This document shows positions 4,797-23,396 of a stretch of DNA of 39,106 bases, piece after piece (within the stretch, counting starts at the first letter, position 1; the number at the start of each line of letters is the position of its first letter). The stretch comes from Candidatus Pacearchaeota archaeon (GTDB lineage: Archaea > Nanobdellota > Nanobdellia > Pacearchaeales > GW2011-AR1). The stretch covers positions 1 through 39,106 of the forward strand of contig JASFEO010000012.1 in the NCBI GenBank assembly GCA_050124795.1, written 5' to 3'. Below the pieces are notes generated by a model. It saw nothing but the letters and a program-made list of their open reading frames with translations. It ran no database searches and had not been told where the DNA came from. The translations under genes were made by a program, and so were the position numbers.

Positions 4797-4801
4797 ATTT
4801 A

Positions 4802-4810
4802 TGATATAAT
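4802..4810 (+). promoter_or_regulatory. Extended -10 promoter (TGATATAAT) upstream of scaffold/capsid
   Basis: Perfect TGnTATAAT in the intergenic gap. Confidence 0.5.
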
Positions 4811-4848
4811 AGTTTTAAATAATAGTTTAAGTTAAATTATTATTATGT

Positions 4849-4912
4849 CATTGAACAAAACAATGTAAAAAAATGTCAAGTCTTCGCGGTCTATCGCGTA
4901 AAAAATAGGGGG
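4849..4912 (+). promoter_or_regulatory. Tandem hairpin/pseudoknot-like leader overlapping the scaffold RBS
   Basis: CATTG-loop-CAATG-TAAAAAAA and CGCG-GTCTAT-CGCG-TAAAAA-ATAGG; the second loop can pair with the RBS region. Confidence 0.5.
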
Positions 4913-4919
4913 AAATTTC

Positions 4920-5483
4920 ATGAGTGATAAAATTAGGAATAAAATTGGTGATGAGTTATATAATAAAATTCTTGAAACTGGGTTAAAGCCAAATGAATTT
5001 GACTTATTAAATGGATATGTTCCAAGAGATAGACTAAATGAAGTTAGCAACAAGCTAAAGTCAACCGAGGCAAAAATAACAGATTATGAAAGTCAAATAG
5101 AAGAGACAAAGCAATTATTAAAAGGTAATGACGAATTTAAATCTAAGTATAACGAATTAAGCGAAAAATATAAAAATGACTTAGCTTTAAAAGATAAAGA
5201 AATTATTAATAATAAAAAGCAGTATAGAATAGTTGATAAGTTAAAGGGTGAAGGAATGAAGCATCCAGAGGTATTTATGAATCAAATTGACTTTGAAAAG
5301 TTATCTTTTGATAATGATAATTTGTTAGGGCTTGACGATGTTGTAAAGGATTTAAAAGAGAAATATAATGATATGTTTGTAACTAAAACATCAACCAATA
5401 ATGTTACACAAAGTAACAAAAATGATAATGATAATGATAATAATAATGATGATGATTGGGGCGAGATATTTAAACAATTTTGA
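4920..5483 (+). CDS. Capsid scaffolding protein (GP20-like)
   Basis: YVPRDRLNEV, long coiled coil, LLGLDDVVKDLKEKYNDMF; immediately before the capsid gene. Confidence 0.85.
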   Translation: MSDKIRNKIGDELYNKILETGLKPNEFDLLNGYVPRDRLNEVSNKLKSTEAKITDYESQIEETKQLLKGNDEFKSKYNELSEKYKNDLALKDKEIINNKKQYRIVDKLKGEGMKHPEVFMNQIDFEKLSFDNDNLLGLDDVVKDLKEKYNDMFVTKTSTNNVTQSNKNDNDNDNNNDDDWGEIFKQF

Positions 5484-5503
5484 TGTTTAAAGGAGTGTAA
5501 GAG

Positions 5504-6412
5504 ATGGCAAATAGTATATCTTATGCAAAAGCCTACAAAGATAAGCTTGACGAAATATTTAAGGCCGGGGCTGTTACTGCTATGATGGAAGCGGCGGAAG
5601 GTACTTATAAATTTAATCCGGAAAATGCACAGGAAATTTTATTACAAAAAGTAAGTGTAAATGGATTGGGTGATTATTCAAGATCAAATGGTTATGTTTC
5701 CGGTGATGCGACAGTTACATGGGAAACGCATTCATTTGGACAAGATAGGGCAAGAAAATTTAATCTTGACACTATGGACGCAAAAGAAGCTATGTTCATG
5801 GTTGGCCGTTTAATGGCTGAAATTATGAGAACTCAAATTATACCGGAAATTGACGCTTATAGGTTCCATAAAATCTGTAATTTATGTAGTGTTGATGCAA
5901 CTGCCGATTTAACAGTTGATACCGTTGTAAATGCAATTGACACCGGTGTACAGACTTTAAATGATGCAGAGGTACCGGAAGAAGGTAGAGTGTTATTTTT
6001 AAGTAATACAGTTGATAACCTATTAAAGAACTCTGGCGAATTTTACAAAACTAGAGTAACGCATGATAATGCAGTTCAAAAAATTCAAAGAAAAATTTCT
6101 ATGCTTGACGATATGCCAATAATAAGAGTGCCTAAAGCAAGGTTCTATAGTGCTTTTGATTTTTATGATGGTGAGTCAGGCGGAGAAACAGCCGGAGGAT
6201 TTACTCCAAGTGCTGGGTCAAAAGAGCTTAATTTTATGATTGTACCTATCCAATATGTAATAGGTGTTATTCGTCATATGGACCCTAAATTAATTCAACC
6301 ACAATACAACGCCGATCATGACGGTTGGATATTTGCACCGAGACTATACCATGAATTGTTTATTCCAGAAAATAAATTAGGCGGTATTTACATACATAAA
6401 AAATCTTCATAA
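5504..6412 (+). CDS. Major capsid protein
   Basis: MANSISYAK.Y, GLGDYSRSNGY, QDRARKFNLDTMD, IIPEIDAYRF and RLYHELFI motifs. Confidence 0.93.
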   Translation: MANSISYAKAYKDKLDEIFKAGAVTAMMEAAEGTYKFNPENAQEILLQKVSVNGLGDYSRSNGYVSGDATVTWETHSFGQDRARKFNLDTMDAKEAMFMVGRLMAEIMRTQIIPEIDAYRFHKICNLCSVDATADLTVDTVVNAIDTGVQTLNDAEVPEEGRVLFLSNTVDNLLKNSGEFYKTRVTHDNAVQKIQRKISMLDDMPIIRVPKARFYSAFDFYDGESGGETAGGFTPSAGSKELNFMIVPIQYVIGVIRHMDPKLIQPQYNADHDGWIFAPRLYHELFIPENKLGGIYIHKKSS

Positions 6413-6427
6413 TTGAGGGGTTTTATA

Positions 6428-7021
6428 ATGAGTGATGTTCAACAAAATTTAATTAAATATTATGAAAATGTTTCTAATATGGCATTAAAAAACTTGAAGG
6501 CTGAAAAGTCTTTTCAGTTTAGAAAAATGCTTACTAATCATAGTTTATTACAGGTTGTTCAATCTCATTATGAAAGCATAAGCAAGTCAGAAGAAGCTAA
6601 GAAAATGATAAAAGATTATATGTCTAGCATGAATGGAATGTATAAAAGTGCTAGGGATGATTACAATAAAACTTTAAAATTGTTAAAGGCGACAAGTGAC
6701 CCTATAGTAAAACAAAGAATTTTAGACGAATACGCAACAAGAGGGATTCATGGTTTTACTGCGAAAAATGGGGCCAGATGGAATATAGAAACATATAGTA
6801 ATATGTGTACTACTCACTTTAACAATGAGATCACAAGGTTGAGTGTTTTAGAAAATGTACCTCAAGATGGTAAAGTACAAATAACGACAAGTTCAAGACC
6901 TTGTCCGTTGTGTATACCTTGGGAAAATAAAATTTTAACTTTACAAGAATTAAACTATGCAAGATCACAAGGACTATTTCATGTAAGATGTAAGCATTTT
7001 GCTTATCCAATTAGGGGGTAA
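6428..7021 (+). CDS. Minor capsid / head morphogenesis protein (Phage_min_cap2-like), short
   Basis: GARWNIETY, RPCPLCIPWENK and GLFHVRCKH; probable start ATG 6428 after GAGGGG. Confidence 0.75.
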   Translation: MSDVQQNLIKYYENVSNMALKNLKAEKSFQFRKMLTNHSLLQVVQSHYESISKSEEAKKMIKDYMSSMNGMYKSARDDYNKTLKLLKATSDPIVKQRILDEYATRGIHGFTAKNGARWNIETYSNMCTTHFNNEITRLSVLENVPQDGKVQITTSSRPCPLCIPWENKILTLQELNYARSQGLFHVRCKHFAYPIRG

Positions 7022-7023
7022 AA

Positions 7024-7188
7024 ATGAGATCAAAAAAAGAAGTTGAAAAACTTTTAATGGATAACATAGAAACTGAAACTTTAAAACGTAAATGGATAAG
7101 GCGGTATTATGTATCTTTGACAGAGGACCACAAACAAAAATGTTTATATTTTATTAAATTATATGGTGGAAATGAGGCCGAATTATGA
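7024..7188 (+). CDS. 54-aa ORF (MRSKKEVEKLLMDN...KRKWIRRYY...); not in the ORF track
   Basis: Translated by hand; AGGGGG RBS; ATGA overlap with the next gene. Confidence 0.55.
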   Translation: MRSKKEVEKLLMDNIETETLKRKWIRRYYVSLTEDHKQKCLYFIKLYGGNEAEL

Positions 7189-7442
7189 ACACGGAAAAAG
7201 GCTCAATTGTTGCATCAATGGGCGGTTATGGTGGCGAAGTTATAGACGATACCGATGCACATACACCAACAAGCCCCTACAATTATGTAGCAATACAAGC
7301 AATAGAAGATTCGACAGTTACGGCGGTCGGTGACATTACCGGTTTAAGTGGTGTTTCAGTACCGGCCGGGTTTGTTATTTATGGAACTTTCACAAGTATT
7401 ACTTTGGGTAGTGGTAGCGTGATTGCTTATTTAGGGGGATAA
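7185..7442 (+). CDS. Small beta-rich virion protein, probable capsid decoration or head-fibre base
   Basis: 85 aa, G/T/V-rich, ends FTSITLGSGSVIAY; in the head module. Confidence 0.5.
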   Translation: MNTEKGSIVASMGGYGGEVIDDTDAHTPTSPYNYVAIQAIEDSTVTAVGDITGLSGVSVPAGFVIYGTFTSITLGSGSVIAYLGG

Positions 7443-7445
7443 AAC

Positions 7446-8294
7446 ATGTTAGGTTTAGGACTAGGGTTAAATAAAAATAATTATAGTGGTGCTTTTACGG
7501 GGCCATTAGACTATTATAGTCAACTAAATTATACTTTTATGGGCCTTAGCATTTATAGACTTACAAAAGAGTATTCCGGATATTGTATGAAAATTAGAAG
7601 AAGCTCTGACAATGCGACAAAAGATATCGGCTTTTCTGGTAGTTTTGTTAATCGTGGAGCTATACAAAGTTTTTGCGGTTCCGGTGATGGTTACGTTCAT
7701 ACTCTTTATGACCAGTCAGGAAATGGCAATAATGCAGTCCAAACTAATAGCAGTTATCAACCTAAAATTTGTGAAAGTGGAGTCTTTATTGAAAAAGGTA
7801 TAAAATTTGATGGGGTTGACGATAGGTTAGACGTTGGCGACACTGGCGGGACTATGTGGAGTGGATATATAAGCTTTGAAACTAATCAAGAAATTACTTA
7901 TAATTCTTCACGAAAACTATCGTTTAATCTCGAAGATAATTACGGCGGTATTCGCTTTGGTAATACTACCGGATATCTTACAAACGAATTATTGGCGGTT
8001 TATGCGGCTGATAGTAATAGATCGGGTTGGGTATCAATATATGACACAATTACCACCGGCACAGTGCATAAACTTTTAACTATATTTAATACAGGGGCCA
8101 ATTTATTTGATATGAGGTATGATGGAACCTATCGAGGAATAACTAAAGTTAATACCCCAGCCGCTATATCTTGTGACAATGTAAGATTAGGGGCAACTAT
8201 GGACGGGGCTGATTGGTTAGATGGGTATGCAAGGTCATTTATATTGTTAAATACAACAATATATGTATCATGGAATTGGTTAAGTACTGTATGA
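7446..8294 (+). CDS. Head-fibre-like protein with concanavalin A/LamG-like (arabinofuranosidase-B-catalytic-like) domain
   Basis: MLGLGLGL N-terminus; IRRSSDNATKDIGF, LYDQSGNGNNAVQ, QPKI and FDGVDDRL motifs. Confidence 0.65.
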   Translation: MLGLGLGLNKNNYSGAFTGPLDYYSQLNYTFMGLSIYRLTKEYSGYCMKIRRSSDNATKDIGFSGSFVNRGAIQSFCGSGDGYVHTLYDQSGNGNNAVQTNSSYQPKICESGVFIEKGIKFDGVDDRLDVGDTGGTMWSGYISFETNQEITYNSSRKLSFNLEDNYGGIRFGNTTGYLTNELLAVYAADSNRSGWVSIYDTITTGTVHKLLTIFNTGANLFDMRYDGTYRGITKVNTPAAISCDNVRLGATMDGADWLDGYARSFILLNTTIYVSWNWLSTV

Positions 8295-8349
8295 CAACTT
8301 AGATATTTTCGAAAATGGTAATAAAATTACTTATAAAGGAGTGTAGCAA

Positions 8350-9264
8350 ATGGCATACACATTAAAAGGTAAGTTGGATTCTATTGGCGATGGTCTGTCT
8401 AGTATAGCGACCGCGTCAAGTCAAATAGCTTCAAATGCAACGGTTTTTGATTCTCTAATTACAGCGGAATCAACAAATGTTAGTTCTTTAACAAGTGCCG
8501 CAACTGATATATCAACCGGTGCTAGTACTATAGTAAGTGCCGGAGCGGCAATAAGTACGGCGAATGATGGAATTGATTCAGTTGGAACTTTAGTTAGTAC
8601 TGGTAATAGTTCGGCCGTAAGCGTTGGAACTTTGGTTAGTACTGCAAATGCTAAAAATGATAGTATTGGAGTTTTACAAAGTACGGGGAATAGTTCAGCG
8701 GTTAGTGTTGGAACCTTAGTTAGTACTGCGAATAGTTTAGGCACTGTTAACGGTTCTAAGATTACTAGTGTTGGAACTTTAGCAAGTACAGGAAACAGTC
8801 TTATAGCTAGTTATGGAACTAAAACAGATAGTGTCGGAACTGCAACAAGTACGGCAAATAGTACAAATTATTCAGCGATTCAAAGTGTTGGAACTTTGCA
8901 AAGTACGGGCAATAGTTCAGCGGTTAGCATAGGAACATTGTTGAGTACTGGAAATTCTAAGACAGATAGTGCGGCAACGGCGGCCAGTACTGCAAATAGT
9001 TCAAGCTTGTCAGCTATTACTAGTTACGGTACGGCCGGAAGTACTGCAAATAGTTCTAGTTTGTCAGCTATTGCTAGTTATGGCACAGCCGGAAGTACTG
9101 CAAATAGTACTAATTTGTCGGCGGTAGATAGTGCGGCGGTAGCGGCTTCAACTGCTAATAGTTCGGCTTTGTCTGCGGTTGTATCACTTGCAACGGTTGT
9201 ATCAACTGGATTTAGCACAACAGATAGTAAGGTAGATTCAGTTGGTGTTGTAGCGGCCGGATAA
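8350..9264 (+). CDS. Ser/Thr/Ala/Gly-rich repeat protein, probable fibrous coiled coil
   Basis: About 13 repeats with an ST[AG]NS-type core, unit lengths 14, 18 or 21 aa; AAGGAG RBS. Confidence 0.8.
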   Translation: MAYTLKGKLDSIGDGLSSIATASSQIASNATVFDSLITAESTNVSSLTSAATDISTGASTIVSAGAAISTANDGIDSVGTLVSTGNSSAVSVGTLVSTANAKNDSIGVLQSTGNSSAVSVGTLVSTANSLGTVNGSKITSVGTLASTGNSLIASYGTKTDSVGTATSTANSTNYSAIQSVGTLQSTGNSSAVSIGTLLSTGNSKTDSAATAASTANSSSLSAITSYGTAGSTANSSSLSAIASYGTAGSTANSTNLSAVDSAAVAASTANSSALSAVVSLATVVSTGFSTTDSKVDSVGVVAAG

Positions 9265-9279
9265 TAGGAGGATTTTAAA

Positions 9280-10344
9280 ATGATTATTGTACATATTGCC
9301 CCTTTTGCCCCTAATGCTTGTGGTCTTTATGAGGCGGCTAGAGACATGAGTAGAGCGGATATCCTTGGAGAAAACAACGTATATTTTATTGATGCAGGTG
9401 TTTCAAGAAATGGGATAAGGGAAAACGGGATAATAGGGCAAGTTGATGAAAGGGGCGACTTTAGGCTAGAAACAAGCGACCCCTTATTTATAAATGAAGC
9501 TGATATTATTATTATGCATACTGGATGCAATGATAACTGGATAGTCAAAACACAAGCCCCAATATTGTGGGCCGTTCATGGGCGGCCGTTAGCTTGTTTT
9601 AGGCCGGAGCGTATTAGCAGTAACAACTTTAATTCTTTTACTTTGTATCATGATATAAGCAAGTGGAAAAGGGTAAAAGGAATGTTATATTTTTGGCCTG
9701 AATTTAAGTCATATTGGGAAAATGTATTATCAAGTAAAGATATTGTTTTAGACTATCCGGTTATTGACGAAAAAAGGTTTTTTATAAAAAATGTTAATGT
9801 ATTAGAAAATAAGGGTGAAATAAATATATTATTATGTGATAGTGAACGTGAGGACATATGCAATTATGAAGTTGTTAATGGATTAATACAAGCATGTAAA
9901 AGGTTTAAAAATATTAAAGTGCATATTTGCGGAATGGATTTATTAGAAGGTGGGAAAATTCCTAATTGTTGGGGTATTGTTTTAGATAAATTAAAACAAT
10001 TGGGCGGCCTTGGTAATGTTTATGGAAGATTAACCAATATGTTAGATGTTTATAATTCTGTGGATTGTGTTATAAGTCCAAATAGAATTATAACTAGAAC
10101 TATTGGAGAGGCTTTAACTTGTGGGGTTCCGGTTATTAGTGAAGTCAACGAAACTAACCTTGTTAGTGATTATACATGTAATATGTCTAATCCTAAAGAT
10201 ATCATACAAGCTTTAGAATGGTTTATTGATGATTTCAAAAATAATAAAATTGATCGAGAGGCTATAAGAAAAAGGGCCGAAGTTTTCAGTTTAAAAAATT
10301 ACTCTGACAAGATGAATAAAATATATAAAAAGGTGTTGTCATGA
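9280..10344 (+). CDS. GT-B fold glycosyltransferase (GT4-like)
   Basis: IVHIAP....CG N-terminus, ADIIIMH, WAVHG, C-terminal VDCVISP...TIGEALTCGVPVIS, FSLKNY. Confidence 0.85.
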   Translation: MIIVHIAPFAPNACGLYEAARDMSRADILGENNVYFIDAGVSRNGIRENGIIGQVDERGDFRLETSDPLFINEADIIIMHTGCNDNWIVKTQAPILWAVHGRPLACFRPERISSNNFNSFTLYHDISKWKRVKGMLYFWPEFKSYWENVLSSKDIVLDYPVIDEKRFFIKNVNVLENKGEINILLCDSEREDICNYEVVNGLIQACKRFKNIKVHICGMDLLEGGKIPNCWGIVLDKLKQLGGLGNVYGRLTNMLDVYNSVDCVISPNRIITRTIGEALTCGVPVISEVNETNLVSDYTCNMSNPKDIIQALEWFIDDFKNNKIDREAIRKRAEVFSLKNYSDKMNKIYKKVLS

Positions 10345-10667
10345 TAAGAATAGTAAATCGAACAGGCAAATTTATGAGACAATTAAAAGAAAATGAACTT
10401 GCGGCTTTAAATGCAATGGGTGTTTTCTGTGTTTCTAAAATGGATTATCATGTAGCCGTTGACACTGGATATTTGAAATCAAGAAATACATATGTTATTA
10501 ATCGCAATGAATTGTTTTTAATGAATGACACGCCATATGCAAAATACCAAGAACTTGGGACTTATAAAATGGCGGCTCATCCATTTATGAGGCCGGCGGC
10601 CTTAAATTATGTAAGTACATTAAAACAAATAAGTGCTTCTTATATGTCAAAAGGTATGAAGGGGTAA
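10341..10667 (+). CDS. HK97 gp10-like tail-completion protein
   Basis: VAVDTGYLKS, YAKYQELGTYKMAAHPFMRPA. Confidence 0.88.
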   Translation: MIRIVNRTGKFMRQLKENELAALNAMGVFCVSKMDYHVAVDTGYLKSRNTYVINRNELFLMNDTPYAKYQELGTYKMAAHPFMRPAALNYVSTLKQISASYMSKGMKG

Positions 10668-10679
10668 AAGGGGTAAAAC

Positions 10680-11075
10680 ATGGAATTGATCGAACTTAAA
10701 ACATATGTCAAGGAAAGGCTTGAAAATTTATCAAATATTAATGTTTATGATACTAAGGTTCCAGATGAAGCGACTTTTCCATACCTAGTTTATAAGTTTA
10801 ATGCTTGTAACTATCTTGTAAGAGAAAGAAAAGACTGGATATTAGAGCTTAATTTTTGGAATGATAGTTATGATGATAGTGAAATTTTACAAGCGGCCGA
10901 ATATGTTAAGAATGGAAGAACAGAAGGAGAGACAGAGTATATCGGATTGAATATTTCAACTCAAAATGAAAGTGAAGGCTTTTATTATTGTCATATTGAT
11001 TTTGAGAGTGAAATTGAAGACCCAGAACCAAATATAACAAGATATAACCAAAGATATATTTTAAAAGTTGATTAG
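10680..11075 (+). CDS. Tail terminator (SPP1 gp17/DUF3168-like)
   Basis: NVYDTKVPDEATFPYLVY; precedes the tail-tube genes. Confidence 0.75.
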   Translation: MELIELKTYVKERLENLSNINVYDTKVPDEATFPYLVYKFNACNYLVRERKDWILELNFWNDSYDDSEILQAAEYVKNGRTEGETEYIGLNISTQNESEGFYYCHIDFESEIEDPEPNITRYNQRYILKVD

Positions 11076-11089
11076 AAAGGAGTGATTTT

Positions 11090-12193
11090 ATGTCAATAAC
11101 TGCGGTAACGCCTACAGTACCAGTCGCCAATGATGTTATAATGGGAAAGTTTAAAACTTATGCCAATTATGGTTTGCCAACACAGACACTACTAGGGGCA
11201 ACTAGAGAAGGTTGTAAAGTTGATATATTACGTCAAATTAAATTAATTGAATTTGATGGTGCTTATGGTCCCACTTTAGACAGTGACGGAGTGCCATTAG
11301 TAAGATATGAAAGATTAGTTGGAAAAATTACTTTAAAAAGTTTGTATTTAAAATATTTTAATAGAAAAATTATTTCAGATTGTGAAAGCGACGGAACTTG
11401 GGAAAGTGGAAACTGGGGAAATGACGGGGGTACTTATGCGGCTGAAACTACTATTGTTAATAGTGGAGATCAATCGGCTAAATGTAGTATAGCGTCGGCA
11501 CAAACCGGACATGGTATCCATGAAGTTTTTGCAAGTGCGAAAGACTTAACGGCTTTTGATAACTCCGAAACTTCCGACACGGCCGATTATATTGGATTTT
11601 CAATATATATTACTACTGCTATGCTTGCTATACTTGGAACAGATAGTATTCAATTAAGAATACATAAGGATGCAGAAGAAACCGAAACAAATTATTATTG
11701 GTATGATGTTGAAGCGTCGGCCTTAACCGCCGATCAATGGACTAATTTAAAAGTCCTTAAGTCAGCATTTACAGAAGAAGGAACGGCTTCATGGAGTGCC
11801 GTAACTGGTATATCTTTTGAAGTACCAGACGCAACCGACGACGCTTTAGAGTTCTATGTTGACTCAATAGACTTAATTCAAGCACAAACTGATAGTTCAG
11901 TTTTGCCGGTAAATGGCTCAACATTTACATACACAGACGAAACAACGTATAAACAATATTCGCCAGATTTAGAGATAGGCAATGACGATTATTTAGAAAA
12001 TATTACTATTATCGGCCAAAGAATGGACGGTAAAAAAATGAAAATAGTCTTGAAAAATGCTTTTAATGATGGAAAATTAGAACTTGCTTTTGAAGATAAA
12101 GACGAAAGTGTAAATGAAACTGAATTTACCGGTCATTATAAGTATGGGTCCGGGTTAATTTGTCCAATCGAAATATATGAATATGTTGCATAA
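11090..12193 (+). CDS. Tail-tube paralogue with an inserted ~175-aa carbohydrate-binding-like domain
   Basis: LLGATREG, IEFDGAYGPT, LKNAFNDG and FTGHY align by eye with the next gene; the insert has W/Y-rich jelly-roll signatures (QWTNLKV, WSAVTGISF, FYVDSI). Confidence 0.75.
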   Translation: MSITAVTPTVPVANDVIMGKFKTYANYGLPTQTLLGATREGCKVDILRQIKLIEFDGAYGPTLDSDGVPLVRYERLVGKITLKSLYLKYFNRKIISDCESDGTWESGNWGNDGGTYAAETTIVNSGDQSAKCSIASAQTGHGIHEVFASAKDLTAFDNSETSDTADYIGFSIYITTAMLAILGTDSIQLRIHKDAEETETNYYWYDVEASALTADQWTNLKVLKSAFTEEGTASWSAVTGISFEVPDATDDALEFYVDSIDLIQAQTDSSVLPVNGSTFTYTDETTYKQYSPDLEIGNDDYLENITIIGQRMDGKKMKIVLKNAFNDGKLELAFEDKDESVNETEFTGHYKYGSGLICPIEIYEYVA

Positions 12194-12206
12194 GGAGGTG
12201 TAAGAC

Positions 12207-12770
12207 ATGGGAATAAATACTTTTGCCCCGGCGGTTCCTGAAAAGGCCAAGGATATCATGTTAGGTGAAGGGCTAGTTTACAAAAACCTTGGAGAATCCG
12301 GAGAGGCTTTAATTGGAGCAACACGCGGCGGTTCTAAACTTACGATTGATAGAGTAATTCGTGAGGTTGAATATGATGGAGCAATGGGACCAACTAAAGG
12401 AATGAGGCAATATGATACGTTTGTTGCAAAATTGATAATTAATTTTTTAAAAATAAATTATGTTAATATGGCGTATGGTTGCAATGTTACCGTTTCAGAT
12501 GGTAGCGATCAAGACGGAACATATAAAAAAATATCTTTTGATACTGATTTTGCGGCGGCTGACGTTTTAACAAATGTAGGTTTCCAAGGTTATAAGGCCG
12601 ACGGAACTTATTGTAAAATTATTGTGCAAAATGCTTTCAATATGGATGATATCGGATTTGAATTTAATGGTATGGACGCGGTCGTAAGCGAAATGGTATA
12701 CACTGGGTTTTATACTTATGCGGCCCCAAGTACGCCGCCATTTAATATGCAAGAAGAGATAAGTGCATAA
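12207..12770 (+). CDS. Major tail (tube) protein
   Basis: IMLGEG.VY, LIGATRGGS, VEYDGAMGPTKG, VQNAFN, YTGFY. Confidence 0.85.
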   Translation: MGINTFAPAVPEKAKDIMLGEGLVYKNLGESGEALIGATRGGSKLTIDRVIREVEYDGAMGPTKGMRQYDTFVAKLIINFLKINYVNMAYGCNVTVSDGSDQDGTYKKISFDTDFAAADVLTNVGFQGYKADGTYCKIIVQNAFNMDDIGFEFNGMDAVVSEMVYTGFYTYAAPSTPPFNMQEEISA

Positions 12771-12819
12771 TTTACATACTATATTTTGTGTATTTTATTA
12801 TATCAAAGGAGTGTTTCGA

Positions 12820-13218
12820 GTGAGTGAGAGAAAATTGAGGAAAAAAGAAGTTATGATAGTTAGCAGAATATTAGACGAAGTGAATTTTAAACACTATGCA
12901 GAATATTTGCTATCTACAAAACTTGATAAAATACTTAGTAAGTCCGAGGGGCAAAAGGAAAAAGTTTTAATAGTTGTAATTGATATTTTTGCTTTTGTCC
13001 TTCAAAACATGTATAAAGCTGAATCGAGCATTGACAAGTTAATAATGTCTTACAAGGGTTTAAATCAAACTGAAATTGATAATTTGGAAGAAGATGCTTT
13101 TATAGAAGTTTTAAAAGATGTTTTTATTGCCGGAGTGCCTAAAGTTATCGGTAAAATAGTTGATTTGTCCGAGTTTAAAAAAAAGTTTCAAGAGATAAAA
13201 GCGGAGCATTTCAACTAA
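12820..13218 (+). CDS. Tail assembly chaperone (gpG-like), GTG start at 12820
   Basis: AAAGGAG RBS; follows the tail tube; ends near the slippery FKKK codons. Confidence 0.8.
   Translation: MSERKLRKKEVMIVSRILDEVNFKHYAEYLLSTKLDKILSKSEGQKEKVLIVVIDIFAFVLQNMYKAESSIDKLIMSYKGLNQTEIDNLEEDAFIEVLKDVFIAGVPKVIGKIVDLSEFKKKFQEIKAEHFN
13179..13185 (+). other. Programmed -1 frameshift site A AAA AAG
   Basis: The -1 frame from 13185 has no stop codon and is in frame with ORF 13302-13607. Confidence 0.85.
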
Positions 13219-13607
13219 CCGACAAAGAAATAATCGAAAATCTTATAAAAAATTATATCTTTATAATAGATTTTTTTACAGATGAAAACATCATTGAACC
13301 AATGATGAATTATTATAAGGATTTTACATATATAGAATATATTTTAGGCCTACCTTTTGAAAGTGGGCTTAAATTATATCTAAAAGCAATAGAACGAACA
13401 CAAGAGGAAAATATGTATAAATTATGGTTGGTTGAAATTGCTAATGGTTGTGAAATGGATTTTGATACTTATTTTAAAAATCAAAAAAATAAATCTGAAG
13501 AAAAATACATGAATGTTGATGAAAAAGAAGAAGAAGAAAAAAGAATTATTGATAAAATAGAAAATAGAAAACTTGGCAAAATGAAAAAAGTTAACTTGCT
13601 AAATTAG
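13185..13607 (+). CDS. Frameshift extension of the tail chaperone (gpGT-like)
   Basis: Open from the slippery site; no RBS before ATG 13302. Confidence 0.75.
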   Translation, partial: VSRDKSGAFQLTDKEIIENLIKNYIFIIDFFTDENIIEPMMNYYKDFTYIEYILGLPFESGLKLYLKAIERTQEENMYKLWLVEIANGCEMDFDTYFKNQKNKSEEKYMNVDEKEEEEKRIIDKIENRKLGKMKKVNLLN

Positions 13608-13781
13608 AAATAAAACTAAAATTTGCTTGCTAGATTTGATCTTGCTAAGTTAGAAATATAACTATTTACTAGGTTTGCTTGCTAGGTTTAAATTTTGCTA
13701 AGTTAGAAATATAATTAGTTTTTGCTAGGTTTGTTTGCTTGCTAGGTATAAAATTTTTGCTAGGTTTGCCCTTGCTAGGTT
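13596..13781 (+). repeat. Array of 10 direct repeats, consensus TTGCTARRTT
   Basis: Copies start at 13596, 13627, 13642, 13666, 13679, 13695, 13722, 13739, 13757 and 13772. Confidence 0.9.
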
Positions 13782-13802
13782 ATTAAAAAGGAGGTTAGCA
13801 AC

Positions 13803-14387
13803 ATGATTGTAACAGTAACAGAAGTTAAAAATTTATTGCAAATTAGCAATTCAACTTATGATTCTTTTATTAAGATTATGATTCCAATTGTTGAAAATGT
13901 TATATGTGATTATTGCAATAAAGATTTTACTGATAGAAATTATGTTTATTTTTCATCAAATACAATAAGCTTTACAGGCTCGACCAATGAAATAAATTTT
14001 ACTGGTATAGGTAATAAACAATTAGTTGAGAATGATACTATTAGGGTTTATGGTTCGTTAAGAAACGATAATCCTTATACGGTCCAAACTGTAAACGATA
14101 ATAGCATAGTTGTAAATGATGTAAATAGGTTGATAGATGAAGACGAAGGGGAAGGAGTATTTATTGCTAGGATTAAATATCCTACTCCACTTAAAATGGT
14201 TGCGGCGAAAATGATTAAATATGATATTTCCTTGTCCGAGAAAGAAGTCGGTGTAAAATCTGAAAAAATAGATGATTATAGTATTACATATGACGACAAG
14301 ATAATGGGATATCCTAGCCATATTATGACTCAATTAAATGATTACAGAACATTATATAAAAGTACAATATTGTCAGGGGGCTTTTAA
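13803..14387 (+). CDS. Head-tail connector (SPP1 gp15/HK97 gp6-like) with an internal insertion
   Basis: MIVTVTEVKNLL, ICDYCN, VKSEKIDDYSITY, YPSHIMTQLNDYR. Confidence 0.8.
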   Translation: MIVTVTEVKNLLQISNSTYDSFIKIMIPIVENVICDYCNKDFTDRNYVYFSSNTISFTGSTNEINFTGIGNKQLVENDTIRVYGSLRNDNPYTVQTVNDNSIVVNDVNRLIDEDEGEGVFIARIKYPTPLKMVAAKMIKYDISLSEKEVGVKSEKIDDYSITYDDKIMGYPSHIMTQLNDYRTLYKSTILSGGF

Positions 14388-14717
14388 ATGGCTATAGAAC
14401 GCTTTTATATATCATGTAGTAGATTAAGACCAACGACAACATTAAACGCTTATAACAGGCCAATTAAAACATATGTAGAAACATCTATAAATGGTTATTT
14501 GGGTAGTTCTTCGGATATAGTGATAAAAGTAGCAGACAAGGAGACATTTGAAGTTAGAAGTAAATTTTATTGTGATGATTTTGACTTAGAATCTACGGAT
14601 TTAATAAAGTATGAAGGAAATACTTATGAAATTATTGGAGAACCAAGAAATACAGTTCACAGAGGCCACCATGTAAGGGCAACTGTTAAAATGATTGGTG
14701 ATGTAAAACAGGAATAA
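14388..14717 (+). CDS. Head-closure protein (SPP1 gp16-like)
   Basis: About 110 aa, beta-rich; DLIKYEGNTYEII; follows the connector. Confidence 0.75.
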   Translation: MAIERFYISCSRLRPTTTLNAYNRPIKTYVETSINGYLGSSSDIVIKVADKETFEVRSKFYCDDFDLESTDLIKYEGNTYEIIGEPRNTVHRGHHVRATVKMIGDVKQE

Positions 14718-14731
14718 AGGGGGTGTAATAC

Positions 14732-16870
14732 ATGCAATTAGCTGATTTATTTTTTAGTGTAAGAACCGAGGGAACACAACAAGCCCATGACAACATCGGG
14801 AAATTAGGAAAATTATTTGATTCAGTTGGTCAAGGTTTAAGCAATGTTGGAAATGGAATTGTTAATTTTGGGCAAACTCTTACAAATAAAATAACATTGC
14901 CTTTAATTGATGCGGCAATCGAAGGGGTAAAATACAATGCTACACTCCAAGAACTTGAATCAAGTTTTAGTGTTTTGCTTGGTTCTGGTGATAAAGCCGC
15001 TGACATGGTCCAAAGGTTAAAAAAAATGGGAGCTGAGACACCATTTGAAATAACAGGATTAGCAGAGTCAACAAAAATGCTTTTAAGTTATGGATATACA
15101 CAAGAAGAAGTTATCCCACTTATGAGAATGATTGGTGATGTCTCACTAGGTAATAAATTAAAATTTAAAGACTTAGGAATTATAATGGGCCAAATAAGTT
15201 CTTTAGGTAAATTACAAATGGGTGATTTGAAACAACTTAGGGAACGTGGTTGGGATCCAATGCAACAAATAATTGAAAAAACAGGTGAAAAATCAAGCGA
15301 ATTTTACGAAAGAATGAGAAAAGGAAAAGTTACTTATAAAGAAGTTGAAGACGCTTTAAGAAAAGTTACAGGTGAGGGCGAAAGATTTTACAAGGGAATG
15401 GAAAAGGGAAGCCAAACCTTGCAAGGTAGACTTTCAACCTTAAAAGATAATTTTATGGAATTGTTAAGTAATGCTATGAAACCAGTATTTGATTTTGTTC
15501 AAAATATAGCGGTTCCTGCTTTGTTAAATTTGATAGAGCGTTTTAATGGTTTATCTCAACCTATTAAAACAGCTATAGTTATTTTAACAGGGCTTGTTGG
15601 CTTTTTGCCTATTGTTATCACAGCGTTTGGTGGTTTAGTTGTTGCCGTTGGTGCGGTTGTTTCTGGTATTGGTGGTCTTGCTTTATTAATATCTACAATA
15701 GGTCTTCCAATACTTATCGCAATCGGAGGGGCTATTACTACATTGACAATGCTATTTGTTGCCTTTGTTGCCCCAATTGCTTTAGTGGCCGGCGGGCTTG
15801 CGGCTTTAGCTATTAAAACCGGGGCGGTAAGTTGGGCCTTTGAAAAAGTAAAAACTTTAATAAATGCTATTATTCAAATTGTTACAGGTAATATGGTTGG
15901 CGCTATGGATTTATTAGTTAATAAATTTGGGATGAGTCAGGCACAGGCTGAAACATTTGCACGTAAAATACAACTTGCCAAGTATTGGGTTGGAAAATTA
16001 ATTGAAGTAGTTCAAAATGTAAGTCAATTGCTAGGTGCTATTTTTACGGCTGACAAACAAAAAATGATTAATATACTTATTGAAAAATTTGGGATTAGTA
16101 AAAAACAGGCTCAAGAATTTGCTAAAAAAGTTTTAGACTTAAAAAATAAAGTTAAAGAATTGGCTGATAAATTTATTAATGCGGCAAGTGGAGCATTGCC
16201 TAAAATAATTAATAAATTAATTGAATTTGCAAAATGGATTTATAATAATCGTGATAAAATTGTTGCTTTGATATCAAAAATAATAGACTTTATTAATAAG
16301 TTGATGCAACTTGCTAGATGGGTTCAGAATAACTCTGATAAAATAAAATCTTTTGCTAAATTTTGTATTAATTTAGGCAAAACAATGGTAACTTTAGCAT
16401 CAATAGCAATAAAACAATTCGGAATAATAAAGAAAACTATTACCGCCGCCATGAATGTAGCAAAAATGACTATTGATGGGGCCAAAAACGCTTTAAATGC
16501 ACTTGCTAGAATAGCCGGTTCAACTGCTAAAGCATTATTAAGTATAAAGTTGCCAAATTTGCCGGGGCTAGGGGCTTTAAAATCATTAGTAGGCCATGCA
16601 AGTGGGATTATGAATAGTCCAATTGGCCATTATGCATTAGTCGGAGAAAAAGGCCCTGAATTGATGTATGTTCCTAAAGGGGCAAGTATTTATAGTAATC
16701 AACAAACTAGACAAATGGCATCTAATACTAGGGGAGCCGAAGCAATAGGAGCCGGAAGCATGTACAATATTGATAAAATAATAATTGATGCTAAAAACGT
16801 AAAAGAATTTAATGACGTTGTAAAAATAATGGAAAATATGAAAGTAGAATATAATACTAGAAAATACTAA
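14732..16870 (+). CDS. Tape measure protein
   Basis: AETPFE and SQTLQGRLSTLKDN tape-measure domain; hydrophobic central region; HASG...ALVGEKGPEL C-terminus. Confidence 0.93.
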   Translation: MQLADLFFSVRTEGTQQAHDNIGKLGKLFDSVGQGLSNVGNGIVNFGQTLTNKITLPLIDAAIEGVKYNATLQELESSFSVLLGSGDKAADMVQRLKKMGAETPFEITGLAESTKMLLSYGYTQEEVIPLMRMIGDVSLGNKLKFKDLGIIMGQISSLGKLQMGDLKQLRERGWDPMQQIIEKTGEKSSEFYERMRKGKVTYKEVEDALRKVTGEGERFYKGMEKGSQTLQGRLSTLKDNFMELLSNAMKPVFDFVQNIAVPALLNLIERFNGLSQPIKTAIVILTGLVGFLPIVITAFGGLVVAVGAVVSGIGGLALLISTIGLPILIAIGGAITTLTMLFVAFVAPIALVAGGLAALAIKTGAVSWAFEKVKTLINAIIQIVTGNMVGAMDLLVNKFGMSQAQAETFARKIQLAKYWVGKLIEVVQNVSQLLGAIFTADKQKMINILIEKFGISKKQAQEFAKKVLDLKNKVKELADKFINAASGALPKIINKLIEFAKWIYNNRDKIVALISKIIDFINKLMQLARWVQNNSDKIKSFAKFCINLGKTMVTLASIAIKQFGIIKKTITAAMNVAKMTIDGAKNALNALARIAGSTAKALLSIKLPNLPGLGALKSLVGHASGIMNSPIGHYALVGEKGPELMYVPKGASIYSNQQTRQMASNTRGAEAIGAGSMYNIDKIIIDAKNVKEFNDVVKIMENMKVEYNTRKY

Positions 16871-16885
16871 AAGGAGGTGGACGCT

Positions 16886-19222
16886 ATTCCTTGGTTATAC
16901 AGTAATACAAGTGGTACGCCTACAAATTGGGCTTGGAGTGCTTTAAATACATATAATCAACATGCGGCGGCGGTCACTGGAATACCGGCCAATTGTGCCA
17001 TAACATATTTAAAAGTATTTGCCGCGGCTAGATCGTCAACTGTTTATACAAGACTTTGCTTATGGAATCCGGGCGGCTCAATGATACGCCAAACTTCAAC
17101 TTTTACAATGGCGGTTGGTTCCGAGTCCGGTGGTGGTCAATATTGGTATACCAAAACAATAGACTATTATACATTTAGTGCCGGGGGTACTTTATGGGTT
17201 GGATTGTACAGAAATCCTTCAGGAGGTCATATTTTTGGTACTATGACCGGTTCGGGGGATGGATTTAGAAAAACAAATACAAGTGGTTTTCCTAGTGTTA
17301 AAAGTATGACAGGTTGGAACGTTGATTCTAACGACGAGCCGACAGTTGCATTATTTTATATTACTGCACCGGGTACCCCTTCGAGTGCGGCAGTGTCTAG
17401 AGTGTCAGACACAAAGCACACCGTAACATGGACAATAAATAGCTCAGCCGATCAACCTGCTTGGAATCACATGGTTGAAAGATGGGACAATGTTACTAAT
17501 GGTTGGTATCACAAAGCAACCTTATCAAGCTCGGCAAACTCTTACAGTGATACAACAACTATAGCAAATAGGGAATATAGATACAGAGTTAAAGCGTGGA
17601 ATGGAGCCGGCAATAGTAGTTATTCGACAACAAGTTATATTAATACAACTCCGGCGGCCCCTACAAGTGTTGTTGCGACAAGGGTAACAACAACGGTCGA
17701 AATTACTTGGAGTAATCCGGCTACAAGTGAAAGTGGATTGACTATTCAGCGTAAAACTTCAACAGATGGCGTGTCTTGGTCGAGTTATAGTACTTTAAGT
17801 AGTTCAATAGCCGCCGACGAAACAAGTTACACTGATAACAGCCCGGCAAATTATAATCAATATCAAGTAAGAGCAGACGACGACAACCCTGCTTTACATA
17901 GTAATTATGTTGAGTCTAATATAGTTATTGTTATTCAGCCGCCAGATGCACCAACGGGTTTGGACCCAGATAACGACGAAGCTATTGACGCGGATGAAGC
18001 AAACACTTTTACATTTACACATAATCCATTAGATGGAACCGAACAAAGCAAATTTTCAATAAGATATAGGGCCGTTGGAGATAGTTGGCCGGGAACACCG
18101 CAAGCGAATGAGGTTGCAAGTTCTGTAAGTTCTTATAGTTGGTTAGCTTCAACGTTTACTAATGGCACTGATTATGAATGGCAAGTTCAAACGTGGGGCG
18201 AACATGCGACGGCCTCGGATTGGTCAGCAACAGCAACATTTAAGGCCGTTAGTACTCCGGTAGCTACAATAACAAGCCCGTCGGCGGTAAGCGACTACGG
18301 TCTTAGTACTTTAACAATGGAATGGGATTATACACAGGCCGAAAGTGAAGGACAAACACAATATATTGCAACCTTGAAAGATTCAAATGATAATATATTA
18401 GAAACTAGAAATTATGCGTCAAGTGTTGCGGCCGGTGCTTCGGGTAGTACTGTTTTTGGTTATGCTTTAGAAAATGAAACTACCTACAAAGTTACTCTAC
18501 AAGTAAAATGTACTAGCGAGTTATGGAGTGAAGAAACCGAAGTCGAGTTTGATACTGATTTTTATGTTCCACCAACACCGACAATTAGCTTAGAACTTGA
18601 CGAAGATGTTGGGGGTATAAATGTTACTATAACTAATCCTTCGCCGACTGGTGACGAAGTCGAAGCAGTTTCTAATAGTTTATATAGGTCGGTTGATAGT
18701 GGTGATTGGGAACTAGTAGAGGATGAAATCGACATAAATACAACGGTAACTGATTACTTGCCAAGTATCGGCGGTAATACTAATTATTATGTTAATGCGG
18801 TAAGTGCTACGCCTACGGTTGCCGCGTCAAGTGAGAGCGATCTAGATGTAGAAATGACCGGATATTTTTTCTTAAACGGTGGTGACGGTTACGGCGATTA
18901 CGCTAAACTTAGAGGTGATATATCTTACAACGAAGATTTTGGAAGAGAAACAGTAACAAGAGGTTATGAAGGTAGAGACTACCCGGTAAAATATCAAGGT
19001 ACAAATTTAAACCAAGTAATGTCTTTTAGTTGTGATTTGCCTAAAGAAGATTATTCAACGCTTAAAACTCTTATAGAAACAGCCGGCGAACACTTTTTCA
19101 GAGGTTGGAACGGTAGGTATATGCATTGTTCAATTACAGGGGCGAAAATTACAAGAAAAAGCAATACATCTTACCAGTTTTCGTGTATCCTAGAAAGGAC
19201 GGAAGTAGAAAATGGCAACTAA
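16886..19222 (+). CDS. Distal-tail-like protein with several fibronectin type III/Ig-like domains; start uncertain (GTG 16877 or ATT 16886)
   Basis: First gene after the tape measure; FN3 signatures (YRYRVKAWNGAGNSSYS, YEWQVQTW); AAGGAGGTG overlaps the GTG. Confidence 0.75.
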   Translation: MPWLYSNTSGTPTNWAWSALNTYNQHAAAVTGIPANCAITYLKVFAAARSSTVYTRLCLWNPGGSMIRQTSTFTMAVGSESGGGQYWYTKTIDYYTFSAGGTLWVGLYRNPSGGHIFGTMTGSGDGFRKTNTSGFPSVKSMTGWNVDSNDEPTVALFYITAPGTPSSAAVSRVSDTKHTVTWTINSSADQPAWNHMVERWDNVTNGWYHKATLSSSANSYSDTTTIANREYRYRVKAWNGAGNSSYSTTSYINTTPAAPTSVVATRVTTTVEITWSNPATSESGLTIQRKTSTDGVSWSSYSTLSSSIAADETSYTDNSPANYNQYQVRADDDNPALHSNYVESNIVIVIQPPDAPTGLDPDNDEAIDADEANTFTFTHNPLDGTEQSKFSIRYRAVGDSWPGTPQANEVASSVSSYSWLASTFTNGTDYEWQVQTWGEHATASDWSATATFKAVSTPVATITSPSAVSDYGLSTLTMEWDYTQAESEGQTQYIATLKDSNDNILETRNYASSVAAGASGSTVFGYALENETTYKVTLQVKCTSELWSEETEVEFDTDFYVPPTPTISLELDEDVGGINVTITNPSPTGDEVEAVSNSLYRSVDSGDWELVEDEIDINTTVTDYLPSIGGNTNYYVNAVSATPTVAASSESDLDVEMTGYFFLNGGDGYGDYAKLRGDISYNEDFGRETVTRGYEGRDYPVKYQGTNLNQVMSFSCDLPKEDYSTLKTLIETAGEHFFRGWNGRYMHCSITGAKITRKSNTSYQFSCILERTEVENGN

Positions 19223-21997: not shown

Positions 21998-22282
21998 ATG
22001 TTTGATTTAACACTATTAGATGATTTGACCAACGCCGAACTTGATGAAGTTCTGAAATATATTCATGATAAAAAAAAGAAAACAAAAGATATTTTTGGAG
22101 AATTTTTAGATAATTATGTTTTTGAAGAAAACAAAAAATATACAACTAAAAGTTTATACAAAGACTTTGAAAAGCATTGCAAGGATAAAAAAAAGGTTTG
22201 TCCTATGATTGGGCCATTTACAAAGAGATTAATTAAGTTTAAAGAAGATAATCCAGAAAAAGGGAAGAATATCGAAATTTAA
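21998..22282 (+). CDS. Hypothetical protein; C-terminal half resembles the winged helix of D5/P4 primase-helicases
   Basis: FGEFLD...TKSLYKDFEKHC......FTKRL pattern; AAGGGG RBS. Confidence 0.45.
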   Translation: MFDLTLLDDLTNAELDEVLKYIHDKKKKTKDIFGEFLDNYVFEENKKYTTKSLYKDFEKHCKDKKKVCPMIGPFTKRLIKFKEDNPEKGKNIEI

Positions 22283-22343
22283 TAAAATGTCAAATTATGA
22301 TAATATATACAGATTGAAAAATACAGAAAATGGGGGAAAAACA

Positions 22344-23396
22344 ATGAAAAAGTTAACTATATTGTTAATAATTGTTACATTATTTACTTTAAACTTTGCT
22401 TTTGTCAATGCAGAAGAAACAGAACAGCCATCTTGCAGTCAACAGCCTACATGTGAGCCAAGTCCTAGTATAGATAATAGTGATAATTCTGATAATAGCG
22501 ATAATTCTGATAATAGCGATAATAGTACTAATGTTGACGTTGACCAAAGTACAGAAACAAACGAAGAAACAACAACTACTACAACAACTGAAAATGACAC
22601 AGAAGTAAGTAATGAGAACGAAGTTGAAAACAACACAGAAAATGAAACAGAAACAACAACAACTACAACACAAAATAATAATAAGGATTCAGAAATTAAT
22701 AATAATACTGAAAATACTACAACTAACGAAACAACTACAGTAAATAGCAATAACCAAATTAATAGCAATAATACAACAACTAATAATATTACAAATAATA
22801 CTTATGTTCAAAGCGTTGAATGTAGTCAAAATGAATTAGGTGTTGATAAGGTAAAAGTTGATTTTGGTAAAACATTTAGTGTTGAAAGTGGAAAAGCTTT
22901 AAAAACTGTTTATTATAAAGGGGAAAAAGTTATAAAATTAACTGGAAACAAACTTAATGCAACTCTTTATTTATACGGTAAAGAATTTAAAAATGCTTAT
23001 TGTAAGGCAAAAAGTTTCAAACTTAAAAAAGGTTTAAATAAACTTAAGCATGAAGTATTTATTAATGGGAAAAAGTGTGTTGTAAATATGACTGTTTACT
23101 CTCACAAAGCGAATGTATTATGCAATGTTAATACCAATACAAACAATGGAAAAGTGGTAGACACTAAAAAAATTATTGTAACAGATAAAAAAGCAGACGA
23201 AGTTAAAACAACAACAAGTGTTGTTAGTGCCTCCGGAGTGTTGGCGGCAAAAACACCAGTCGAAGCTGTTCAAGTTTCAAGTAACGGAAGTTTACCACAA
23301 ACAGGTGAAGGAACTCCGATACTTCCAATTATAATAGGTGCTTTGTTAATAATGGTAGGTATCGCAGCAACATTTAAATTGAAACATGCAAAATAA
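22344..23396 (+). CDS. Sortase-anchored (LPXTG) cell-surface protein with an N/T/E-rich low-complexity region
   Basis: Signal peptide MKKLTILLII...VNA-EE; LPQTG, hydrophobic segment and basic tail KLKHAK. Confidence 0.88.
   Translation: MKKLTILLIIVTLFTLNFAFVNAEETEQPSCSQQPTCEPSPSIDNSDNSDNSDNSDNSDNSTNVDVDQSTETNEETTTTTTTENDTEVSNENEVENNTENETETTTTTTQNNNKDSEINNNTENTTTNETTTVNSNNQINSNNTTTNNITNNTYVQSVECSQNELGVDKVKVDFGKTFSVESGKALKTVYYKGEKVIKLTGNKLNATLYLYGKEFKNAYCKAKSFKLKKGLNKLKHEVFINGKKCVVNMTVYSHKANVLCNVNTNTNNGKVVDTKKIIVTDKKADEVKTTTSVVSASGVLAAKTPVEAVQVSSNGSLPQTGEGTPILPIIIGALLIMVGIAATFKLKHAK
22473..22526 (+). repeat. Six 9-bp coding repeats (Asp-Asn-Ser x6)
   Basis: GATAAT(AGT/TCT/AGC) x6. Confidence 0.9.

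Follow-up and report, generated by a model that had tools for sequence, protein, structure and literature searches.

The window, a stretch of 39,106 bases that is one entire contig (JASFEO010000012.1) and is considered here in its full length, carries in the late operon of an uncultured wetland phage a gene for a 304-residue repeat protein (8350..9264, plus strand) and, immediately downstream, a gene for a 354-residue glycosyltransferase (GT; 9280..10344, plus strand). Comparison of gene neighbourhoods identifies repeat protein and GT as a real, conserved two-gene cassette. What is new, and well supported by synteny, is a GT4-like family that together with a dedicated heptad-repeat fibre seems to represent a variant of phage virion glycosylation. 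We lean towards the view that the cassette is an enzyme-substrate pair serving the O-glycosylation of a coiled-coil fibre of the phage head or neck; judged from its genes, the phage probably sugar-coats its own fibre.

In the mechanism that we propose, the GT would act in the cytoplasm of the infected cell, where it would move a sugar from a nucleotide-sugar donor to Ser/Thr hydroxyls of the fibre. The acceptor residues would lie outside the hydrophobic a/d core of the coiled coil, the near-invariant Ser of the motif (D)S[VI]G being the prime candidate. Once glycosylated, the repeat protein would assemble, presumably as an oligomer, into a fibre of coiled-coil type attached to the virion head or neck, and its sugars may serve in adhesion to surfaces or host glycans, or in shielding.

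Linkage of the repeat protein and the glycosyltransferase

The linkage of the two genes was followed in both directions. With a GT profile, 56 loci on viral contigs and 80 metagenome loci were found, which dereplication by exact GT DNA reduced to 110; 36 of these have less than 900 nucleotides upstream of the GT and were excluded, leaving 74 assessable loci. An open reading frame (ORF) was counted as a fibre if it lies on the same strand within 3.6 kb upstream of the GT and contains at least five S[VILA]G motifs. Such a repeat protein is present upstream of the GT in 54 of the 74 assessable loci, compared with 1 of 788 other ORFs of at least 150 residues in the same loci. In a quick maximum-likelihood tree of 73 GTs, the clade comprising the GT of the window (36 rows; Shimodaira-Hasegawa-like approximate likelihood ratio support of 99) has a repeat protein upstream in 36 of 36 cases. 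In the reverse direction, 31 loci were found via the N-terminal motif of the fibre, two of which end too early, and all 29 with at least 530 nucleotides downstream encode a GT at a distance of 19-1188 nucleotides. The loci are not independent, as there is overlap between the two collections and some loci are closely related to one another, and these counts are to be read as consistency and not as a statistical test. A search for co-occurrence and adjacency had been proposed beforehand in an earlier note on this DNA, and its outcome in both directions and within the clade agrees with the pairing which that note had suspected.

Of the forward loci below the threshold, 13 have an upstream flank of 3 kb or more, and the flanks of the other 7 are partial. 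Seven of the 13 were inspected individually, five were judged from a locus listing, and L043 from tables only. Evident fibre relatives with diverged repeats are encoded in L042, L043, L144, and L062, and non-repeat, β-helix-like proteins occupy the fibre position in L177 and L049 (in L177 by eye only). A 909-residue protein and another protein read as GT-like are present in L163 and L167, and two tandem GT paralogues follow genes read as sugar-nucleotide synthesis genes in L124 and L138. In these last four loci, a minority of the GT homologues, there is no fibre-like neighbour in the available flanks, which weighs against fibre and GT being an enzyme-substrate pair. The earlier note had declared that its proposal would fall if GT homologues usually occurred without a Ser/Thr-rich neighbour; this is not the case for the majority of the assessable loci, but it is for this minority.

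The pair keeps a constant position between capsid and neck genes although the capsid proteins beside it belong to three families, phrog_422 in this phage, phrog_10 in L066, and phrog_371 in L060. The guanine-plus-cytosine (GC) content of the loci extends from 0.27 to 0.68, and the fibre repeats are found behind different N-terminal domains. The enzyme therefore follows the repeat protein and not the phage lineage. In its minimal form (L008-L010), the cassette reads minor head protein, fibre, GT, Neck1.

This pattern of linkage bears on what the enzyme acts upon. An active transferase might have another acceptor, either a different Ser/Thr-rich protein of the phage or an envelope polymer of the host, and the fibre might be linked to it via the same process, for example by binding the glycan. 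Candidates in the window are a 781-residue tail protein (16877-19222) and an LPXTG surface protein (22287-23396), which contains (DNS)5 and poly-Thr tracts. We consider such an arrangement unlikely, as it is the repeat fibre, and not the tail or LPXTG protein, that accompanies the GT in a conserved manner over the 74 assessable loci, and as the minimal cassette holds only fibre and GT between minor head protein and Neck1. Also, the GT gene is located in the late structural operon, whereas serotype-converting transferases of phages are membrane proteins encoded near lysogeny genes. Matches outside phages are few as well: in a profile scan of 185,579 species-representative genomes with a single pattern, none of 21 stretches was confirmed, which is weak evidence of absence, and of 400 other genomes from the phylum of the genome with which the contig was binned, two gave a match, which is strong in one case and weak in the other.

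That the enzyme glycosylates phage DNA in the manner of the T4 glucosyltransferases, with the fibre as an incidental neighbour, is far less probable still. None of the 37 ORFs scanned in the window, which include all those of at least 120 residues, matches a hydroxymethylase or base-modification family, the GT gene is placed in the late structural operon and not among replication genes, and it is the fibre gene to which it is linked in a conserved manner.

In the distant branch of the family, GTs are 33-44% identical to that of the window and the GC content of the loci is 0.35-0.68. There, the gene order is capsid gene, small gene, a fibre of 350-730 residues, a gene for about 165 residues, a DUF7164 gene for about 283 residues, and GT; in L066 the GT is followed by one more gene and then by the head-tail adaptor. 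In these fibres the N-terminal domain is globular (Beta_helix in L049), and the DSVG..ST..SK repeats come after it. An alignment by hhalign of the fibre family with the high-GC fibre P0121 gave a probability of 22%, and homology of the fibres between branches is not claimed, only a like motif. The DUF7164 assignment has an E value of 7.5e-40 in L060, and one distant locus adds a GT2 gene. The genes for the 165-residue and DUF7164 proteins are located some 1.3 kb ahead of the GT in L046, L047, L053, L055-L061, L066, L070, and L144, and their products are candidates for further glycan-modifying steps. An assignment of the 165-residue protein as class-I methyltransferase was not retained, as it shows only the motif VLELGxGxGS and matches nothing in Pfam, NCBIfam, or PHROGs; BLASTP against the methyltransferase part of fused GT relatives gave an E value of about 0.5. 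A low-GC sub-branch (0.27-0.30) formed by L124, L138, and L013/L044 (a 100.6-kb viral contig) is distinguished by two tandem GT paralogues. In L138 these follow four genes whose N-termini are read as RmlD/C/B/A-like (dTDP-rhamnose synthesis), and in L013 they come after a repeat protein in which SVDK/SVDN units abound.

A wider reading, which we put forward only tentatively and with more doubt than that of an enzyme-substrate pair, is that of a mobile 'glycan-coat' cassette exchanged among unrelated uncultured phages whose hosts range from 27 to 68% GC. Such a cassette would install a new O-glycosylation sequon, the invariant Ser of the heptad-spaced (D)S[VI]G exposed on a coiled-coil surface, and in many lineages the glycan might be extended to a methylated oligosaccharide by the candidate small methyltransferase, DUF7164, and further transferases. 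If so, sugar-coated head or neck fibres would be widespread in environmental phages well beyond the actinobacteriophages.

The glycosyltransferase and its proposed acceptor

For the 354-residue protein, AlphaFold2 yields a confident model (predicted local distance difference test, pLDDT, 92.2; predicted template-modelling score 0.91) with a GT-B fold over the whole length, including the two Rossmann-like domains and the cleft between them. In Foldseek comparisons the model matches MshA best (E 1e-14), followed by GlgM, PimA, and BshA; the protein-modifying enzymes SdgB (rank 20, E 1.5e-11) and GtfA (structure 4pqg, rank 49, E 2.3e-10) rank lower. On the evidence of this model the protein is a soluble GT-B, GT4-like transferase that is closest to enzymes of the retaining class, in agreement with the GT-B assignment of the earlier note, and its fold does not fix the acceptor. 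The Pfam model Glyco_trans_1_4 scores the protein at 23.5 bits, under the cut-off of 27, and some relatives exceed a Pfam cut-off for Glycos_transf_1 or Glyco_trans_1_4 (P0223 with 36.1, P0194 with 30.6); measured by Pfam's own criterion, the family therefore stands apart as a diverged branch and does not qualify as an ordinary member. PHROGs give no match to it, and a profile of 30 homologues compared with solved structures finds GT4 enzymes throughout, the best E value being only 0.07. Among 1.84 billion representative sequences, the family comprises 186 clusters at 50% identity with E values of at most 1e-30 and 459 with E values of at most 1e-3. A tblastn search with three family members against 50,697 GenBank phage records produced no match at E 1e-3. 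As far as these sequence comparisons reach, the family is small and unnamed and is distinct from any in the GenBank phage records compared.

The alignment of 30 family members contains 29 invariant columns. Besides E277 these comprise a number of Arg, Lys, and His positions, and the N-terminal half accounts for 18 of them. In GT-B enzymes, the N-terminal half binds the acceptor, and the C-terminal domain of GT4 enzymes bears an EX7E motif. E277 aligns with the second Glu of the stretch NESFGLVAMEA of MshA, and the first EX7E position is occupied by R, K, S, H, or Y. The loss of this first Glu, together with the Pfam score under the cut-off, might suggest that the GT-like protein is not catalytic and that it serves the fibre as an assembly chaperone or structural partner with a GT-B fold; tight conserved adjacency is typical of tail-fibre/chaperone pairs of phages. 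Such a function seems quite improbable to us in view of the 29 invariant columns, which include E277 at the second EX7E position as well as the basic residues. In addition, among 20 long GT relatives that were scanned, 15 are fused to S-adenosylmethionine-dependent methyltransferase domains, additional domains of GT type (GT2, GT11, Glyco_trans_1_2, and DUF273) occur in 6, and 3 show nothing more. Such fusions would suit an enzyme pathway and not a chaperone, and the pathway would be suited likewise by the DUF7164 and GT2 genes added at distant loci. Fusion and conservation patterns thus fit an active glycan-building enzyme and not a degenerate fold. In the relatives P0189-P0243, which are 500-1159 residues long, the GT domain is joined to Methyltransf_11, Methyltransf_21, or Methyltransf_24 domains, and P0219 also has GT11 (fucosyltransferase-type) and Glyco_trans_1_2 domains.

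The repeat protein consists to 72% of Ser, Thr, Ala, Gly, and Val, with 7% charged residues (DEKR) and neither Pro nor Cys. It is the most Ser/Thr-rich protein of the phage, with a combined fraction of 0.38 compared with 0.24 for the next. It is filled from one terminus to the other by related heptad-based units that bear (D)S[VI]G..ST and are 14, 18, or 21 residues long, and its identity autocorrelation peaks at lags of 14, 18, and 28. At the DNA level, Tandem Repeats Finder reports two arrays within the gene, both on the plus strand, one with a period of 42 nucleotides or 14 residues (8581..8737, 3.7 copies, 64% matches) and one with a period of 54 nucleotides or 18 residues (8986..9119, 2.5 copies, 90% matches). 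In the phage's own clade, where the fibre is repeat throughout, the N-terminus reads MAYTLKGKLDSIG. Natural length variation is observed: an in-frame deletion of 54 nucleotides (9007-9060), equivalent to one 18-residue unit, is present in a contig of the DNA run X3, and a viral contig of 99% identity encodes a 286-residue form with one 18-residue unit fewer.

Among 23 homologues, S[VILA]G motifs follow one another at distances of 7 (52 times), 14 (91 times), or 21 residues (11 times), and also at 18/19 or 25. Within their 262 units, Asp precedes the Ser in 52%, Val or Ile follows it in 88%, and a Ser or Thr stands seven residues further on in 83%. The hydrophobic Fourier spectrum of the fibre has its peak at 3.5 residues, the next being at 3.6, and in all six homologues tested of the 23 the heptad contrast between a/d and other positions exceeds that of 200 shuffles (z 4.7-11.8). 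Because of the heptad spacing of the motif, the hydrophobic period, and the a/d contrast, the fibre is probably an α-helical coiled coil, on the outside of which, away from the hydrophobic a/d core, the conserved Ser and Thr residues would thus come to lie. An AlphaFold2 model of the monomer is poor (pLDDT 63.4), with helices at residues 5-74 and 249-303 and low-confidence hairpins in the middle. Neither Pfam nor PHROG nor NCBIfam has a family at threshold for the fibre, which in this lineage shows neither a recognisable foldon nor a globular anchor domain. A sequence search, limited by low complexity, returned only 3 matches, one of which (P0123) has a longest contig of the same length, 43,453, as that of the GT relative P0097, and the N-terminal 80 residues alone returned none; a search of a protein atlas gave leads only, under 0.9 and with TM under 0.3. 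The earlier note's description of a Ser/Thr-rich repeat is appropriate for this protein but does not extend to the family, as homologues contain as little as 22% Ser plus Thr; by the alignment of units, the constant of the family is the heptad-spaced (D)S[VI]G motif and not Ser/Thr richness.

Fourteen of the 19 Asn residues of the fibre are part of N-X-S/T sequons, about twice the mean of shuffled sequences (7.2, standard deviation 2.05; 11 of 5000 shuffles reach 14). This count and the 72% of small residues, as well as the lengths of both genes, the spacer of 15 nucleotides, and the ATGA overlap, had been given in the earlier note and are all correct on recounting the sequence. The excess of sequons might suggest that the enzyme N-glycosylates the fibre at these Asn residues, but it is due to the repeated STANS/STGNS unit of this lineage, and as a family feature the sequons fail: the 23 homologues carry between 0 and 14 of them, none in 4 homologues and at least 10 in only 4. 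Moreover, the protein-modifying enzymes among the fold matches are O-transferases, and the cytoplasmic N-glycosyltransferases HMW1C/NGT belong to GT41 and are not GT4-like. N-glycosylation is therefore very improbable in our view, and because the sequons are not conserved an O-linked modification appears likelier than an N-linked one.

A GT family of 186 clusters that is absent from GenBank phage records and is tied to a repeat fibre across several capsid lineages deserves attention in either case. If the fibre is the acceptor, glycosylation of virions would be far more widespread than now known, a compact two-gene enzyme-substrate pair would be at hand, and a simple repeat sequon for the O-glycosylation of coiled coils in the cytoplasm might be useful for glyco-engineering. 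It would also help to explain how phages stick to mucus, to the biofilm matrix, and to the envelopes of their hosts. Should the fibre prove not to be the acceptor, its strict linkage to the GT still needs explaining.

The phage genome, its late operon and its host

An exact direct repeat of 127 bases at the two ends of the contig (1-127 and 38980-39106) is the reason for which it is taken as a complete, circularly assembled genome of a free phage of about 38,979 bases. The late operon on the plus strand comprises, in this order, terminase, portal, scaffold, major head protein (5504..6412; phrog_422, E 5.5e-79), and minor head protein. The minor head gene is separated from that of the repeat protein by three genes that are small or unassigned, and the repeat protein is followed by the transferase, Neck1/tail completion (10341..10667, plus strand; phrog_5, E 1.4e-10), a head protein, and two major-tail paralogues. 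Further along come the genes for head-tail adaptor and head closure, then tape measure and distal tail proteins. The Neck1 gene overlaps the stop codon of the GT gene by ATGA, and this overlap and the capsid gene upstream place the pair inside the morphogenesis operon. Between fibre and GT there are 15 nucleotides (9265..9279, plus strand) with a GGAGG ribosome-binding site. Co-expression of fibre and GT is likely on account of this short spacer, the ATGA overlap, and the fact that terminator-like sites were looked for at the pair and none was seen. A metatranscriptome contig of 333 nucleotides maps to 8204-8536, over the start of the fibre gene, although RNA libraries can carry DNA; the same run contains nothing else over 4800-14800, where assembled contigs cannot show absence. 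DNA of the phage is present in three wetland metagenome runs (X3-X5, from three studies in one year) with 57-94% of sampled words; runs with shares under 0.2 (X6 and X8-X13) were left out of account.

Several neighbouring genes on the plus strand are worth recording. The 282-residue 'virion structural protein' encoded at 7446-8294 (phrog_10356) matches with its residues 39-102 the start of the catalytic domain model of α-L-arabinofuranosidase B (Pfam E 4e-9), and it is preceded at 7185-7442 by the gene for a conserved 85-residue protein rich in Gly, Ser, and Thr. These two genes are directly upstream of the fibre in L007 and L011 and are absent from L008-L010. The adjacent paralogous major tail proteins (11090-12193 and 12207-12770) both belong to phrog_885, and the second has half the length of the first. 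The genes for head-tail adaptor and head closure (13803-14717) come after the tube genes and right before the tape measure, which is not the usual arrangement in siphophages. Downstream of the LPXTG gene, the plus-strand block closes with a gene for a 604-residue FtsK/SpoIIIE-like ATPase (23728-25542).

The LPXTG gene (22287-23396, plus strand) codes for a protein of 369 residues in which a signal peptide, DNS repeated five times, extended tracts of poly-Thr/Asn, the sequence LPQTGE, a membrane anchor, and a basic tail are recognised. By these features it is a cell-wall-anchored surface protein (moron) and a classic sortase substrate, and besides the fibre it, too, is conceivable as the acceptor of an O-glycosyltransferase acting in the cytoplasm. 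It points to a host that bears sortase. The endolysin combines Amidase_3 and SPOR, and the nearest cultured relatives of the capsid protein, at no more than 40% identity, infect mostly the Gram-positive hosts Eggerthella, Ruminococcus, Clostridium, Streptococcus, and Listeria. As judged from these proteins, endolysin, capsid relatives, and LPQTGE protein fit a sortase-bearing host of Gram-positive type. The contig was binned with a genome of 1.06 Mb and about 32% GC, family members of which have 0.5-0.9 Mb; sortase (PF04203) was not found in this binned genome, which is 90% complete, and it may not be the host of the phage. One GT relative is labelled as coming from a metagenome-assembled genome of the Bacteroidota. 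A match of 26 nucleotides between 22062-22087 of the window and contig C10 of the bin was discarded as chance, since it is A-rich, of low complexity, and has no tRNA nearby. The 'Bacillota siphophage' of the earlier note thus went too far, as a Bacillota host is not established for what is a free circular phage genome merely binned with that of another organism.

Comparison with known systems

To our knowledge, glycosylation of phage particles by enzymes of the phage has been shown for only a few actinobacteriophages. Freeman and colleagues are said to have described it in 2023, in Cell Host Microbe, for the mycobacteriophages Che8, Corndog, and Myrna. Outside the actinobacteriophages, no description of such a pair of fibre and transferase was found in the literature searched, and neither gene has relatives in the 50,697 GenBank phage records, in line with the earlier note, which knew of no such pair in a Bacillota siphophage. 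Mycobacteriophage transferases, often together with a methyltransferase, are reported to modify virion proteins of their own phage, and glycosylation of actinobacteriophage virions is reported to alter their recognition by antibodies (PMC12363180, PMC12619734, PMC13313380); the glycans are located on the C-termini of capsid and tail-tube subunits (PMC12619734). As in these phages, the GT gene described here is situated among structural genes, and GT relatives are fused to, or encoded beside, methyltransferase-type genes. In contrast to them, the capsid protein (which ends in ...IYIHKKSS) and the two tube proteins of our phage have no Ser/Thr-rich C-terminus, their Ser plus Thr fraction being 0.11-0.17, and the likely acceptor, known from genes alone, would be a separate repeat fibre encoded beside the enzyme. 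As tblastn found no match in the GenBank phage records, the enzyme families are therefore different, with the qualification that the presence of Che8, Corndog, and Myrna among these records is unconfirmed.

Heptad-based fibre genes between head and neck genes are familiar from fibritin, which forms the neck whiskers of T4, and from the head fibre of phi29. The repeat protein resembles them in its heptad-based gene, its placement between head and neck, and its hydrophobic period of 3.5, and differs from them in matching no PHROG, in being rich in Ser, Thr, Ala, and Gly and nearly uncharged, and in having no recognisable foldon.

With regard to the enzyme, the closest solved structures are GT4 enzymes of the BshA/MshA/PimA type, at 11-15% identity. 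Their acceptors are malate, inositol phosphate, and phosphatidylinositol, whereas the GT studied here occurs in the context of a phage head-neck module and has not kept the first Glu of EX7E. A gene arrangement like that of our cassette is encountered in the GtfA/GtfB system, the O-GlcNAc transferase of serine-rich-repeat adhesins, in which the enzyme gene also lies beside that of a Ser-rich repeat substrate, and GtfA is among the fold matches. That system involves a two-protein GtfA-GtfB complex and accessory Sec export. In our phage there is a single GT, none of the 37 scanned ORFs matches a second GT, a SecA2/SecY2, or an Asp family, and GtfA comprises 506 residues compared with 354 for the phage enzyme.

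A further parallel is offered by SdgA and SdgB, which are reported to glycosylate the serine-aspartate-repeat adhesins of staphylococci (PMC3794999, PMC8561734). SdgB is a soluble enzyme of GT4 type, and the Ser residues to which it attaches O-linked sugar belong to the long, simple repeat of a fibre protein at the cell surface; a similar mode of action is suggested here for the phage GT, and the Asp that precedes the conserved Ser in 52% of the 262 phage units adds to the resemblance. SdgB is, with about 500 residues, longer than the phage GT and shares 12% identity with it. In place of a run of SD dipeptides, the phage protein presents a heptad repeat with one conserved Ser every 7-14 residues, and the proposed substrate would be a phage protein assembled in the cytoplasm and not an adhesin anchored by sortase.

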